Program-made: the position numbers and the translations under genes
Shown: positions 16,417 through 64,000 of the stretch, one piece after another
Numbering within the stretch: the stretch's first letter is position 1
How the letters are laid out: every line of letters begins with the position of its first letter
From: an uncultured Eubacteriales bacterium
GTDB lineage: Bacteria; Acidobacteriota; Aminicenantia; Aminicenantales; Aminicenantaceae
Direction of reading: 5' to 3'
Length of the DNA stretch: 64,000 nt
NCBI GenBank assembly: GCA_964410125.1
Contig: CAYPGQ010000005.1
Location: 21,395 to 85,394, forward strand
Notes under the pieces: model-generated
What the model was told of the DNA's origin: nothing
What the model saw: only the letters and a program-made list of their open reading frames with translations
Databases searched by the model: none

Positions 16417-16431
16417 CCTGAATTATTTACG
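16417..16431. repeat. Short copy of the repeat-family terminal motif (CCTGAATTATTTACG)
   Basis: Lies directly after the stop of the HGSNAT-like gene. Related solo copies occur at 25122..25136, 25324..25334 (inverted), 30949..30963 and 63538..63552. Confidence 0.4.
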
Positions 16432-25121: not shown

Positions 25122-25334
25122 CCTGAATTATTCACGTGCCAAGATTGCTGCAGCGGCAAGGCAGTGGCTCATGAGCTGTATCTGTATACTGCGATTGGGC
25201 TACAACGAAGCCGATGTGGTGAGATTGGCTCGCCCGAAGGGTAAAAAATTCCGATGTATGATAATAATAGATATGAAATTTCAGTTTTTGCGGGAAAGAG
25301 ATAAAGCATCGGAATTTTTTATAAATAATTCAGG
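25122..25334. repeat. Pair of inverted terminal-motif copies (CCTGAATTATTCACG ... AATAATTCAGG) bracketing about 210 bp of unrelated sequence
   Basis: Located in the convergent intergenic region between the secreted hypothetical gene and the purF-like gene. The bracket length is similar to copies A and B, but the internal sequence differs. Confidence 0.35.
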
Positions 25335-27737: not shown

Positions 27738-28514
27738 ATGGAAGAACAGAAAAAGGTCATCGTAGCCGGAATCATTTTTGTTGTATTGATAGTGGCCACA
27801 GCCTTCATTTATTACTTTTTTATTTATTCAAAACCTCAAAAGTCTGAAGAAGCGACCCAGATCGTTCAAGAGCAGCCCGTGGTTGAGGAGAAGGTCCAAC
27901 CAGAAGAGGAAAAGGTCGAACCGCTGGATGTGAGTTTGGATAAAAGTGATGATCTGGTCCGGAAACTTGCGGAAGAATTATCATCCCATCCTAAGCTGGC
28001 CATGTGGTTGATGAGCGAGGAATTGATTCGGAAGTTCGTGGCTGCCGTTGATAACATCGCCAATGGTCAAAGCCCAGCGCCGCAGATCGATTTTTTCAAA
28101 CCCGATGGAAAGTTCAAAATTGTCGAGGAGGTAGGAGAATGCTTCCTTGATCCAGAAAGTTATAAACGGTATGACCTTGCAGCTGAAGTTTTTGTATCAT
28201 TGGATTCCAAAGGATGTGTGACTCTGTATAGGCAGCTGAAACCAGCCATCCAAGAGGCATACAAAGATTTGGGATATCCAGACACAGAATTTGACAACAC
28301 ATTGAAAAAAGCTTTAATGGAACTTCTTAAGGTTCCCGTCATCAAACAGAACATCCAACTGGAAAAGAAGGTCTTGACCTATACAATAGTTGATACCGAT
28401 TTGGAATCCTTGAGTTCTGCCCAAAAACATCTTCTGCGAACGGGGCCAGACAACGTCCGAGTTATCCAGGGGAAACTTCGTGAGATGGCCGAATTTTTGG
28501 GTTTTATGAAGTAA
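27738..28514 (+). CDS. Membrane-anchored hypothetical protein
   Basis: Start MEEQKK followed by a single N-terminal TM helix, a Glu/Pro-rich linker and a globular C-terminal domain. The upstream start in the ORF track is unlikely. Confidence 0.4.
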   Translation: MEEQKKVIVAGIIFVVLIVATAFIYYFFIYSKPQKSEEATQIVQEQPVVEEKVQPEEEKVEPLDVSLDKSDDLVRKLAEELSSHPKLAMWLMSEELIRKFVAAVDNIANGQSPAPQIDFFKPDGKFKIVEEVGECFLDPESYKRYDLAAEVFVSLDSKGCVTLYRQLKPAIQEAYKDLGYPDTEFDNTLKKALMELLKVPVIKQNIQLEKKVLTYTIVDTDLESLSSAQKHLLRTGPDNVRVIQGKLREMAEFLGFMK

Positions 28515-28566
28515 AAAAAGCATCGACGTTTTTTATGAATAGTTCAGGTATAATGGCTCCATAATA

Positions 28567-30948: not shown

Positions 30949-30963
30949 CCTGGATAATTCAGG
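30949..30963. repeat. Palindromic solo motif CCTGGATAATTCAGG
   Basis: Lies between the convergent stops of the GT-C-like and GT-A genes. It matches the inner palindrome arm of repeat copies A and B. Confidence 0.35.
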
Positions 30964-33539: not shown

Positions 33540-33938
33540 CTATTTTATTTTCAGGGCAATAAGCTTTTTCACCTGTTTTATAATGGCGGAAACCGTATTT
33601 TCGACGATTATCCGGCCTTTTTCCCTGGTTGCCAGGGTAGGATCCCCCCATATTCCTGTGGGGCTGAAGTGCTCTTTTCCATCAGGATCGCGCGTCAAAC
33701 CTCTTCGGTCAGGCCGAGAATCATAGTCTTTCACGGCCTTGGACATGTCGACCGTTTCCGGAGCGAGATACAGCATCATGGATGTTTCCCCCTCGTCCGC
33801 ATGTGTGCCGCCTTCTTGGAGTGCTTTTTCCGCTTCCATCCAAGTGAGGTTTTCGAGGACCACAGATGCTTTGTCTGCATAGGATACAAAGGGATTCAGA
33901 ATAAAAAGGATTAAAACTAACAGTTTAAGTTTCTTCAT
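33540..33938 (-). pseudogene. Creatininase-family remnant (internal deletion) with an acquired signal-peptide-like N-terminus
   Basis: A signal-peptide-like N-terminus is followed directly by creatininase N- and C-terminal segments (LENLTWMEAEKAL, HADEGETSMMLYLAPETVD, ATREKGRIIVENTVSAI). The central metal-binding core is missing. Its ATG abuts the radical SAM stop (TAGAATG). Confidence 0.35.
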
Positions 33939-34935: not shown

Positions 34936-35002
34936 TTAGACATGTATTTTCTGTCTTTAGGCTCTCCTTTACTATAATTATTTTTCCTCCGTTCGTAAAT
35001 AG

Positions 35003-35209
35003 CCTGAATTATTCATAAACATGATTTTTTTTACGGAATTTAATGTTATATGCATTGAAATCAGGGACATATTGCCAGAAATTGGGGACATGTACCGATT
35101 TGTTTTGAAATCGGTAACGTGTCCCCTGAATTTCTGGTACATGTCCCTTGATTTTAAGCTCGTACATGAATAATTCAGGGTAACCTGGATAATTTATGAA
35201 TTATCCAGG
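35003..35209. repeat. Structured palindromic repeat element, copy A (MITE-like; TIRs CCTGAATTATTCAT / ATGAATAATTCAGG)
   Basis: About 90% identical to 63347..63508 except for two roughly 20-bp insertions. It contains the central hairpin GGGACATGTACCGATTT...AAATCGGTAACGTGTCCC and a second perfect palindrome CCTGGATAATT-TATG-AATTATCCAGG. It lies immediately upstream of the gene at 35264. Confidence 0.65.
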
Positions 35210-35263
35210 ATAGCTAAAAAAGCCTGATTGACATTCTTTTTTAATTGAATATTATAGGAACAA

Positions 35264-35743
35264 ATGCTGAATGATTTTGTGGAATTCCTGAATAATTTTC
35301 AATTGAACAGGGAGTTCATTGTCCTGATCGTGAGCATGCTCCCGATATTCGAGCTCCGGGGAGCCATTCCGTTGGCAGTGCTCCATTTTAACATGCCGGT
35401 GCTCACCGCATTCCTGCTATCCTGGATAGGCAATTTGATCCCCATCCTGCCCATAATTTATTTTCTGGAGCCGATTAGAAAAGCCCTCTCCCACATAAGG
35501 ATTGTGGATAAGTTTTTTAAATGGTTTTACTCTCGGACCTACAGGCGAGGAAAAAAAGCCATGAAATGGGGTGCCATCGGCCTTTCTCTTTTTGTCGCTA
35601 TTCCCTTGCCCGTGACAGGTGCGTGGACCGGCTCTGTGGTGGCGATTCTATTTGATATCAAACCCCGGTATGCTTTTCCGGCGATAATCTTGGGGGTAAC
35701 TATTGCCGGAATCCTTGTGTCCGCTTTTGTCTCAATATTTTAA
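35264..35743 (+). CDS. Small polytopic membrane protein (COG2426 / Sm_multidrug_ex-like)
   Basis: 159 aa with four predicted TM helices. The conserved ELRGAIPLAV segment resembles the putative small multidrug export protein family. Confidence 0.45.
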   Translation: MLNDFVEFLNNFQLNREFIVLIVSMLPIFELRGAIPLAVLHFNMPVLTAFLLSWIGNLIPILPIIYFLEPIRKALSHIRIVDKFFKWFYSRTYRRGKKAMKWGAIGLSLFVAIPLPVTGAWTGSVVAILFDIKPRYAFPAIILGVTIAGILVSAFVSIF

Positions 35744-58796: not shown

Positions 58797-58873
58797 TGGT
58801 CGGGACGGGCGGATTTGAACCGCCGACCCCACGCACCCCAAGCGTGTGCGCTACCAGACTGCGCCACGTCCCG
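58797..58873 (-). tRNA. tRNA-Pro (anticodon GGG), CCA encoded
   Basis: The minus-strand sequence CGGGACG-TG-GCGC-AGTCTGGTA-GCGC-A-CACGC-TTGGGGT-GCGTG-GGGTC-GGCGG-TTCAAAT-CCGCC-CGTCCCG-A-CCA folds into a canonical cloverleaf with anticodon GGG and G37. Confidence 0.8.
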
Positions 58874-63311: not shown

Positions 63312-63346
63312 CATCTTGCTTCAAAATAGTGAAGTATTGTTTTTAT

Positions 63347-63508
63347 CCTGAATTATTCATAAATATGATTTTTTTAACGGGATTGAATGCTATATGCATT
63401 GAAATCAGGGACATGTACCGATTTTCCGAAATCGGTAACGTGTCCCTTGATTTTAAGCTTTTACATGAATAATTCAGGGTAACCTGGATAATTTATGAAT
63501 TATCCAGG
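63347..63508. repeat. Structured palindromic repeat element, copy B (MITE-like), followed by a solo terminal palindrome at 63538..63552
   Basis: Near-identical to copy A (35003..35209) but lacks A's two insertions. It has the same TIRs, central hairpin and CCTGGATAATT-TATG-AATTATCCAGG palindrome. It sits immediately upstream of the RocA-like gene. Confidence 0.65.
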
Positions 63509-63573
63509 TTATTAATGTATAATGTTAAATTCTTGAACCTGAATAATTCAGGTAAAAAAAAGGAGGAAAAGAT

Positions 63574-64000
63574 ATGAACGCTGTTGTGAAGATTCCACAT
63601 CCTTCGAATGAGCCTATATTCAGCTATGCACCTGGGACTCCTGAGAAGGCGGCTTTGAAGGTGCAGATTGAAAAAATGCTTGGTGAGAGAATGGAAATTC
63701 CCTTAATAATCGGGGGAAAAGAAGTAAAAACCGGAAATTTGGCAGACTGCCGTTGTCCACACGACCATAATCATCTTCTGGCTCAATATCACAAAGCTGG
63801 TCCAAAAGAAATCGAGATGGCTGTTGGAGAGGCCAAAAAGGCCTGGAAAGATTGGTCTGAAATGGATTGGATTTCGCGTGCCTCGGTGTTTTTAAGAGCT
63901 GCAGAACTTTTGGCAACCAAATACCGGGACATTCTGAATGCATCAACCATGCTCGGGCAGTCCAAGACCCCCCATCAAGCCGAAGTCGATGCTGCTTGTG
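63574..64000 (+). CDS. 1-pyrroline-5-carboxylate (L-glutamate gamma-semialdehyde) dehydrogenase, RocA-type (3'-partial)
   Basis: RBS AGGAGG at 63561..63566, 7 nt before the ATG. The N-terminus resembles Bacillus-type RocA aldehyde dehydrogenases. The frame is open to the window end. Confidence 0.7.
   Translation, partial: MNAVVKIPHPSNEPIFSYAPGTPEKAALKVQIEKMLGERMEIPLIIGGKEVKTGNLADCRCPHDHNHLLAQYHKAGPKEIEMAVGEAKKAWKDWSEMDWISRASVFLRAAELLATKYRDILNASTMLGQSKTPHQAEVDAAC

Follow-up and report, generated by a model that had tools for sequence, protein, structure and literature searches.

Two palindromic elements upstream of unrelated genes in an Aminicenantia contig are very probably miniature transposable elements with IS1380-type ends

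Why do two closely similar palindromic elements stand immediately upstream of two unrelated genes in the same contig? The question is raised by a 64,000-nucleotide stretch of DNA, hereafter the window, from an uncultured bacterium of the lineage Aminicenantia (contig CAYPGQ010000005.1 of assembly GCA_964410125.1, positions 21,395 to 85,394 of the forward strand). One element, copy A, precedes the gene of a small membrane protein; the other, copy B, precedes the gene of a RocA-like aldehyde dehydrogenase. The first-pass annotation of this DNA had left three options for the pair: a transposable element of the miniature inverted-repeat type (MITE), a transcribed structured RNA (leader or small RNA) or a composite operator region. 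The first is borne out by target-site duplications, empty sites in relatives and further copies, whereas the structured RNA and the composite operator are not supported. Our conclusion, to which we give a probability of about 93%, is that both elements are non-coding MITEs with terminal inverted repeats (TIRs) of the IS1380 family, inserted before two unrelated genes. The named homologues closest to the window proteins, and the genomes with the same MITE family, are metagenome-assembled genomes (MAGs) of Candidatus Aminicenantes. Identical proteins are found in metagenome assemblies from JGI, ENA and Logan, and contigs of the same species in JGI 3300005823, 3300028837 and 3300008516 and in ENA ERZ25073496.

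Structure, boundaries and empty sites of the two copies

Both regions were read directly and aligned. The paired palindromic elements are real, all the motifs quoted in the first-pass annotation being present where it had placed them (Table 1). The two copies are identical at 153 of the 162 aligned positions (94.4%). Copy A has a surplus of 45 bases, mainly two blocks of 21 and 22 nt, one on each arm of the central hairpin in symmetrical positions. Each copy is a composite in which a core MITE of 132 bp (copy B) or 177 bp (copy A) is followed by GTAA and then by a palindrome of 26 bp in which two ends adjoin each other. The core is delimited by CCTGAATTATTCAT and ATGAATAATTCAGG, the TIRs already recognized as common to both copies, and the outer ends of the composite are CCTGAATTATTCA and TGAATTATCCAGG. 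Inside each terminal repeat lies a palindromic core, TGAAT-W-ATTCA. In shuffled sequence, the expected number of matches to the terminal-repeat pair pattern was 0. The central hairpin (GGGACATGTACCGATTT / AAATCGGTAACGTGTCCC) is also found in both copies, and a search of the window allowing 3 mismatches returned these two only. The second perfect palindrome that had been described, CCTGGATAATTTATGAATTATCCAGG, forms the right extremity of each copy. The distance to the start codon is 54 bp for copy A (ATG at 35264) and 65 bp for copy B (ATG at 63574), in agreement with the gene distances first reported, and the AGGAGG ribosome-binding site of the RocA-like gene is indeed present at 63561-63566.

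The elements, of 207 and 162 bp, are almost wholly palindromic and no open reading frame (ORF) of at least 80 aa lies within either. An ORF of 52 aa is called in a JGI metagenome annotation wholly inside copy A (L002 9746-9904, corresponding to window positions ~35008-35166, minus strand; L numbers designate the loci and contigs compared with the window). It has no Pfam match and is most likely spurious.

Perfect 4-bp direct repeats abut both copies, ATAG/ATAG for copy A and TTAT/TTAT for copy B, so that the check for target-site duplications suggested by the first-pass annotation was positive in both cases. Because these duplications abut the outermost ends, the boundaries first assigned to the elements are exactly those of the mobile unit. 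Syntenic contigs of relatives were found via homologues of the small membrane protein (Sm_multidrug_ex; protein 87-92% identical). Those in which this protein is 87-88% identical lack both copies. Copy A has no counterpart in the orthologous intergenic region of L323, L324, L325 and L327, and the radical-SAM gene and the membrane-protein gene are 105-116 bp apart in the relatives as compared to 328 bp in the window. At this site, L325 and L327 read CGTAAATGGC-AAACAACCTGATTGAC with a single ATGG (CGTAAATGGC-AAAC), whereas the window reads CGTAAATAG (207 bp) ATAGCTAAAAAAGCCTGATTGAC, with ATAGCTAAAA directly 3′ to the element. Copy B is likewise without counterpart in L329 and L330, where 91 bp separate the HD-domain gene from the aldehyde dehydrogenase gene, as compared to 262 bp in the window. 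These two contigs read GTATTGCCTCTATTGGTGTATAAT, with a single CTAT, in place of GTATTGTTTTTAT (162 bp) TTATTAATGTATAAT. The single target copy is thus precisely readable in two relatives at each site. Taken together, the duplications and the uninterrupted sites of the relatives therefore show that both copies are precise insertions that duplicated a 4-bp target.

Overall, the elements have the features of MITEs: they are short and non-coding, carry TIRs flanked by target duplications, are dispersed in many copies and show presence/absence polymorphism with a precise empty site. They also have those of IS1380 derivatives, with ends starting with CC that match transposase-coding elements and a duplication in the 4-5 bp range.

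Related copies and the link with IS1380

Counting further copies was another check proposed at first reading, and many were found. One genome per species was scanned with the pattern CTGAATTATTCA-N(96-156)-TGAATAATTCAG, which yielded 109 short elements in 108 genome loci (L011-L118). The host labels, those of MAGs, included Aminicenantes, KSB1, Zetaproteobacteria/Mariprofundaceae, Bacteroidales/Prevotella, Gemmatimonadota, Calditrichaeota, Latescibacterota, Cloacimonadota and Desulfobacteraceae, among others. The interiors of these elements are unrelated between lineages, but multi-copy and near-identical within one genome. Aminicenantes PFL34 has at least 13 copies of 174-177 bp; 159-bp elements occur in two Zetaproteobacteria MAGs, one of which has at least 8 copies, and 121-bp elements in KSB1. 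Exact 4-bp direct repeats outside CCTG...CAGG were observed for 36 of the 105 elements with scorable flanks, as compared to a mean of 9.7 and a maximum of 17 in a shuffled-partner control. The flanking 4-mers differ between copies of a family and agree on the two sides of a copy (CTAA/CTAA, TTAG/TTAG, TTAT/TTAT, CTAT/CTAT), and the exact repeats include pairs that are not palindromic (CTAA, TTAT and CTAT). These repeats are target-site duplications, and the preferred target is YTAR-like and often TTAA.

A family-specific pattern drawn across the central hairpin gave 81 loci in metagenomes. When metagenomes, MAGs and the window are considered together, the hairpin module occupies 82 distinct sites, with both ends at 51, one end at 12 and no ends nearby at 19. 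The 51 complete copies comprise 32 composites and 19 simple copies. In 20 of the 32 composites, the outer boundary bears an exact duplication (shuffled control, 5.8), and in all 32 at least 3 of the 4 bases match there; at the core boundary, no duplication is exact. In simple copies, exact duplications are found at the core ends in 8 of the 19 (shuffled control, 4.2). The target is TTAA for 24 of the 51 complete copies, and the others include ATAG, TTAT, TGAA, GAAA, TTCT and CTAC. Related copies are found next to unrelated genes, in tandem as well as in divergent and convergent spacers, and all but one are intergenic. Many are found at contig ends, as expected of repeats.

The assignment to IS1380 comes from the ends. 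A scan of viral contigs for CCTGAATTATTCAT returned L158, with two inverted matches 1649 bp apart. This Clostridium element has the structure TTTAG-CCTGAATTATTCATAGA...TTTATGAATAATTCAGG-TTTAG, and its 14-nt ends, CCTGAATTATTCAT and ATGAATAATTCAGG, are identical to the MITE ends. Its sole ORF, of 440 aa, matches NF033539 (IS1380 family transposase, cut-off 180) with a score of 388 bits and PF13701 with E = 8.7e-143. An identical protein bears the name IS1380 family transposase of Clostridium sp. 2-1. Three other genes for IS1380 transposases adjoin the sequence TTAA-CCTGAATTATTCAT (L200, L124, L130). Annotated IS1380-family elements borne by plasmids of Firmicutes have ends one base off the MITE ends: CCTGAAATATTCAT in an Alicyclobacillus element, with the duplication ATAT, and CCTGAATAATTCAT in an E. 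faecium element, with the duplication TATAA. The latter end is also that of an ISSsu5-like element. A homologue search with the L158 transposase returned mostly Clostridia and no Aminicenantes partner. Looking for full-length insertion sequences (ISs) in the 108 genome loci, through end pairs 0.9-4 kb apart and multi-copy ORFs, gave noise only; the only recurring neighbour there is a set of sigma-54 activators, which is unrelated.

In its ISfinder description, the IS1380 family has ends starting with CC and duplicates 4-5 bp of target. The full-length elements that we examined have duplications of this size (TTTAG, ATAT, TATAA), and those of the window MITEs are of 4 bp. The MITEs thus share with IS1380 ISs (ISSsu5-like elements of Firmicutes, ISEcp1, ISPme1) TIRs starting with CC that are identical or one base off (CCTGAATWATTCAT), as well as 4-5 bp duplications in AT-rich sites. 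They differ from them by their size, 162-207 bp as compared to ~1650-1710 bp for the ISs, which contain a transposase gene, and by an interior consisting of a palindromic hairpin module unrelated to the IS interior. The eukaryotic piggyBac elements, distant relatives of IS1380, also target TTAA and have ends starting with CC. The preference for TTAA (24/51 in the MITE family) and the 4-bp duplication recall them, but the window MITEs are bacterial, have another end sequence and belong to a family with many non-TTAA targets (ATAG, TTAT, TGAA, GAAA, CTAC).

A transposition pathway can be proposed from these features. An IS1380-family DDE transposase, supplied in trans, would bind the CCTGAATTATTCA ends. 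The element would then be cut out or copied, and inserted in an AT-rich 4-bp target, mostly TTAA or another YTAR-like site, where repair of the staggered cut would generate the duplication. If the transposase takes the outermost palindrome end as the right end, the whole 162- or 207-bp block would move. IS1380-family transposases have been reported to use surrogate right ends, as in ISEcp1 and ISPme1 (PMC9330008). The outer right end of the composite fits with this property.

In the literature searched, no paper linked MITEs to the IS1380 family, and searches for the end sequences gave chance matches in eukaryotic primer lists only. IS1380-type ends bound large non-coding families in many poorly studied phyla (Aminicenantes, KSB1, Zetaproteobacteria, Bacteroidales). 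They apparently delimit a widespread and undescribed MITE superfamily. Three behaviours are illustrated here on a small scale, none of them surprising in kind: movement of a composite via an alternative outer end, growth of a palindrome by nesting and, probably, collapse of an element to 15 bp.

The central hairpin and competing readings

The 53-nt hairpin module follows the formula GAAATCAGGGACATGTACCGATTT-TCYG-AAATCGGTAACGTGTCCCTTGATTT. Short forms consist of one hairpin unit, either of the ACCGATTT type, as in copy B, or of the ACCGGAAATT type (L082, L108). In long forms (copy A, L014, L087, L092), one unit is nested at the tip of another, the inner unit being found in either orientation. 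The extra segments of copy A, which had been described as insertions adding an inverted repeat, are therefore explained: the two symmetric 21/22-nt blocks are there because one hairpin unit nests at the tip of another. A homologous module, with the same arm asymmetry and a different but compensated distal stem, is contained in the otherwise unrelated PFL34 MITE family. Among 36 distinct 53-nt variants, most differ by single, one-sided changes, and the copies are too alike to show covariation.

Several points weigh against the conclusion that the elements are IS1380-type MITEs. Neither the window nor ~2.5 Mb of loci from MITE-bearing genomes yielded an IS1380 transposase gene. The exact 4-bp duplication is kept in only about a third of the cross-phylum elements, and the search that gave these elements demanded exact ends, so that the sample is biased. 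The MITE model alone does not account for the 19 sites where the module lacks IS1380 ends. Among copies without such ends (metagenome loci L249, L266, L294 and L246), the module is 53/53 identical at an orthologous convergent-gene locus, as compared to 79-82% and 57% identity in the flanks. Finally, we infer mobilisation in trans, alternative-end use and collapse, as well as transposition itself, from sequence comparisons.

With respect to the module, a non-orthologous copy devoid of ends also shares ~30 nt upstream of the hairpin, and such copies may belong to another repeat unit. It is conceivable, though rather unlikely, that the 53-nt hairpin is a palindromic module of Aminicenantes-like genomes, similar in form to repetitive extragenic palindromic (REP) units, that has a function or spreads independently. 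If a host or mobile protein recognized this hairpin, the MITEs would be chimeras of two repeat systems. REPs and bacterial interspersed mosaic elements (BIMEs) are mobilised by REP-associated tyrosine transposases (RAYTs). They too are intergenic palindromic repeats, and the likeness to the module resides in the conserved arm asymmetry and in the occurrence outside the MITE. The whole element differs from them, as REPs have neither TIRs nor 4-bp target duplications; a REP/RAYT repeat was therefore ruled out for the whole element. Neither copy shows a GTAG-type head motif. No RAYT gene was found either, although no genome-wide search for RAYT was made.

A very unlikely alternative to the MITEs is that the elements are structured RNAs kept for their fold, as a 5′ leader or riboswitch-like element or as a small RNA gene. 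The folding comparison proposed in the first-pass annotation would agree with it: folded as single strands, the two copies have predicted structures far more stable than those of shuffled sequences (z = -12.4 and -8.4). Besides, both copies lie upstream of plus-strand genes, the difference in size between them keeps the pairing through symmetric changes in the arms, and read-through into copy B from the upstream HD-domain gene is possible, no terminator having been found. However, the pairing is accounted for at the DNA level by the terminal repeats and the palindromic module, and the copies, as noted above, are too similar to reveal covariation. Moreover, the same genes are devoid of the element in close relatives, and related copies are found in every intergenic context beside unrelated genes. 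No Rfam family was reached at threshold over the elements. Rfam (15) returned tRNA-Pro only over the window; at a permissive threshold, three matches covered copy A, all below gathering scores and to implausible families.

The position of the regulatory signals also argues against a leader or small RNA, since the candidate promoter of the membrane-protein gene (11/12 consensus matches) and the conserved TGTATAAT are both 3′ to the elements. Sequence matching the former is present in relatives without the MITE, and GTATAAT is conserved in L329 and L330, both of which lack it. A consensus scan of the plus strand detected no full -35/-10 promoter for the RocA-like gene. Inside both elements, consensus scans detected no plus-strand (gene-directed) promoter, no terminator and no outward promoter at threshold. 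The promoters of both downstream genes are likely located 3′ to the elements. Because insertion of copy B replaced the DNA directly upstream of TGTATAAT, it may have affected the strength of the RocA-like promoter. A regulatory role of the elements is not supported; their position upstream of genes reflects insertion into AT-rich intergenic targets and not regulation.

Still less probable is a reading of the CCTGAATWATTCAGG palindromes as operators of a host factor (7-1-7, with Fur-family or ARG-box-like half sites) controlling the membrane-protein and RocA-like genes. The TGAAT...ATTCA core recalls ARG boxes. In addition, the motif, searched with up to 3 mismatches, occurs 15 times in the window as compared to 2.8 expected, this enrichment being in intergenic DNA, and the RocA-like gene has a perfect copy between its candidate -10 element and its ribosome-binding site. 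In Firmicutes, however, transposase-coding IS1380 elements end in the same motif, as do MITEs of many phyla, so that the operator-like palindromes are the transposon ends themselves. Each window occurrence tested, including the 15-bp palindromes, is an insertion with a 4-bp duplication that is missing from relatives. Furthermore, the ~100 bp that separate the sites and lack the motif are themselves 94% conserved between the copies, which points to copying rather than to convergent operators. For annotation, this removes a tempting false lead: the striking palindromes found before a gene of proline/arginine catabolism and the gene of a membrane protein are transposon ends, neither an operator nor a riboswitch.

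Lastly, the idea that the repeats are recombination or attachment sites bounding a mobile 28-kb segment with a defence island, suggested by their same orientation, 28.3 kb apart, on either side of a variable island, can be set aside, since a same-species contig without the island (L006) keeps both copies ~6 kb apart, the island junctions are at ~36.6 kb and ~58.8 kb, beside tRNA-Pro and not at the repeats, and relatives lacking both repeats (L329) retain the intervening housekeeping genes.

Two further candidates were considered and rejected. A TA duplication of the IS630 or Correia type was ruled out as, within a family, the 4-mers that flank a copy agree over their whole length. Sites of the integron attC, dif or Xer kind, with conserved ends and variable centres, were dropped once the duplications and the DDE transposase had been found. 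Correia elements of Neisseria and other bacterial MITEs nonetheless resemble the window MITEs in being short, non-coding, intergenic and multi-copy, with terminal repeats. They too have long and short variants arising from internal segments, and, once transcribed, an entire element can form a long hairpin. Correia elements differ by the duplication of TA and by unrelated 26-bp ends. Promoter, IHF-binding and RNase III effects are documented for Correia elements; such effects are not indicated for the window MITEs.

Solitary end motifs and the surrounding window

The commonest 11-mer of the window, besides A-runs, is AATAATTCAGG. Outside the two copies, end-motif sites lie at 16417, 25122, 25320, 28534, 30949 and 63538, and all are intergenic. 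The solitary 15-bp palindromes at 30949 and 63538, each composed of halves of IS1380-type ends, are insertions of 19 nt relative to related genomes (15 bp and a 4-bp duplication) and probably represent collapsed IS1380-type elements; the latter (63538-63552) is in the likely 5′ untranslated region of the RocA-like gene. As the left and right MITE ends share their palindromic core as a direct repeat, a deletion between the two cores would leave CCTGAATWATTCAGG and the duplication. Collapsed palindromes of this kind could pass for regulatory sites anywhere in these genomes.

Table 1. Positions in the window of the two composite elements, their parts and neighbouring features (dot, no strand assigned)
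Feature	Position	Strand	Remarks
Copy A, composite IS1380-type MITE, long form	35003..35209	+	207 bp
Copy B, composite IS1380-type MITE, short form	63347..63508	+	162 bp
Left target-site duplication of copy A, ATAG	34999..35002	.	Identical to 35210-35213
Right target-site duplication of copy A, ATAG	35210..35213	.	
Left target-site duplication of copy B, TTAT	63343..63346	.	Identical to 63509-63512
Right target-site duplication of copy B, TTAT	63509..63512	.	
Left TIR, CCTGAATTATTCAT	35003..35016 (A); 63347..63360 (B)	+ (A)	Identical to the end of the L158 IS1380-family element and to ends beside the IS1380 transposase genes of L200, L124 and L130
Right terminal repeat of the core MITE, ATGAATAATTCAGG	35166..35179 (A); 63465..63478 (B)	+ (A)	
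Nested central hairpin module, long form	35057..35154	+	GGGACATGTACCGATTT hairpin carried at the tip of an outer CCAGAAATT/AATTTCTGG hairpin
Central 53-nt hairpin module, short form	63401..63453	+	Copy B
GTAA spacer between core MITE and 26-bp palindrome	35180..35183	.	GTAA also in 22/32 related composites
26-bp 'two-end' palindrome, CCTGGATAATTTA + TGAATTATCCAGG	35184..35209	+	Outer half serves as the composite's functional right end; duplications match at the outer boundary
26-bp 'two-end' palindrome, outer right end of copy B	63483..63508	+	
Candidate sigma-70-like promoter of the small membrane protein gene, TTGACA-16-TATTAT	35228..35255	+	11/12 consensus matches; downstream of copy A
Candidate extended -10 element of the aldehyde dehydrogenase (RocA-like) gene, TGTATAAT	63516..63523	+	Downstream of copy B
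15-bp perfect palindrome, CCTGAATAATTCAGG	63538..63552	.	Flanks TGAA and TAAA; 19-nt gap in L329 and L330, equal to the palindrome plus 4 bp
15-bp palindrome, CCTGGATAATTCAGG	30949..30963	.	Flanks TTAA/TTAA; gap of 19 nt in L331, a relative
Probable third, degenerate IS1380-type MITE of another subfamily	25122..25334	+	213 bp; ends CCTGAATTATTCAC and ATAAATAATTCAGG

The spacer that contains the probable third element is 245 bp long in the window as compared to 31 bp in L329. No clean duplication borders this element (CTAT and TATT), and the relative's spacer is too diverged to fix the boundaries. Beside its right end, an inner motif, AAAGCATCGGAATTTTTTAT, resembles families present in L025, L032 and L041. 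End-like motifs also stand alone just past gene ends at 28534 and 16417 (28512-28548 and 16417-16431).

The variable island of ~22 kb mentioned above extends over ~36610-58790, between surE and the tRNA-Pro(ggg) gene (58797-58873, minus strand). It encodes a ResIII/restriction-endonuclease protein, an SLFN_AlbA_2/HATPase protein, a 907-aa AAA/SMC-like protein, an N6_N4 methyltransferase and ABC/AAA proteins. The island is missing from the same-species contig L006 and from relatives L329 and L331, in which surE is directly followed by the tRNA and merR. The creatininase-family gene at 33540-33938 (minus strand) encodes ~132 aa in the window and in same-species contigs, as compared to 266-267 aa in relatives. 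It covers the C-terminal half of the Pfam domain only and is probably a truncated remnant. Finally, a 35-nt motif recurs at a spacing of 126 nt over positions 201-1375, inside a 497-aa ORF (18-1511), which suggests that the product is a repeat-domain protein.

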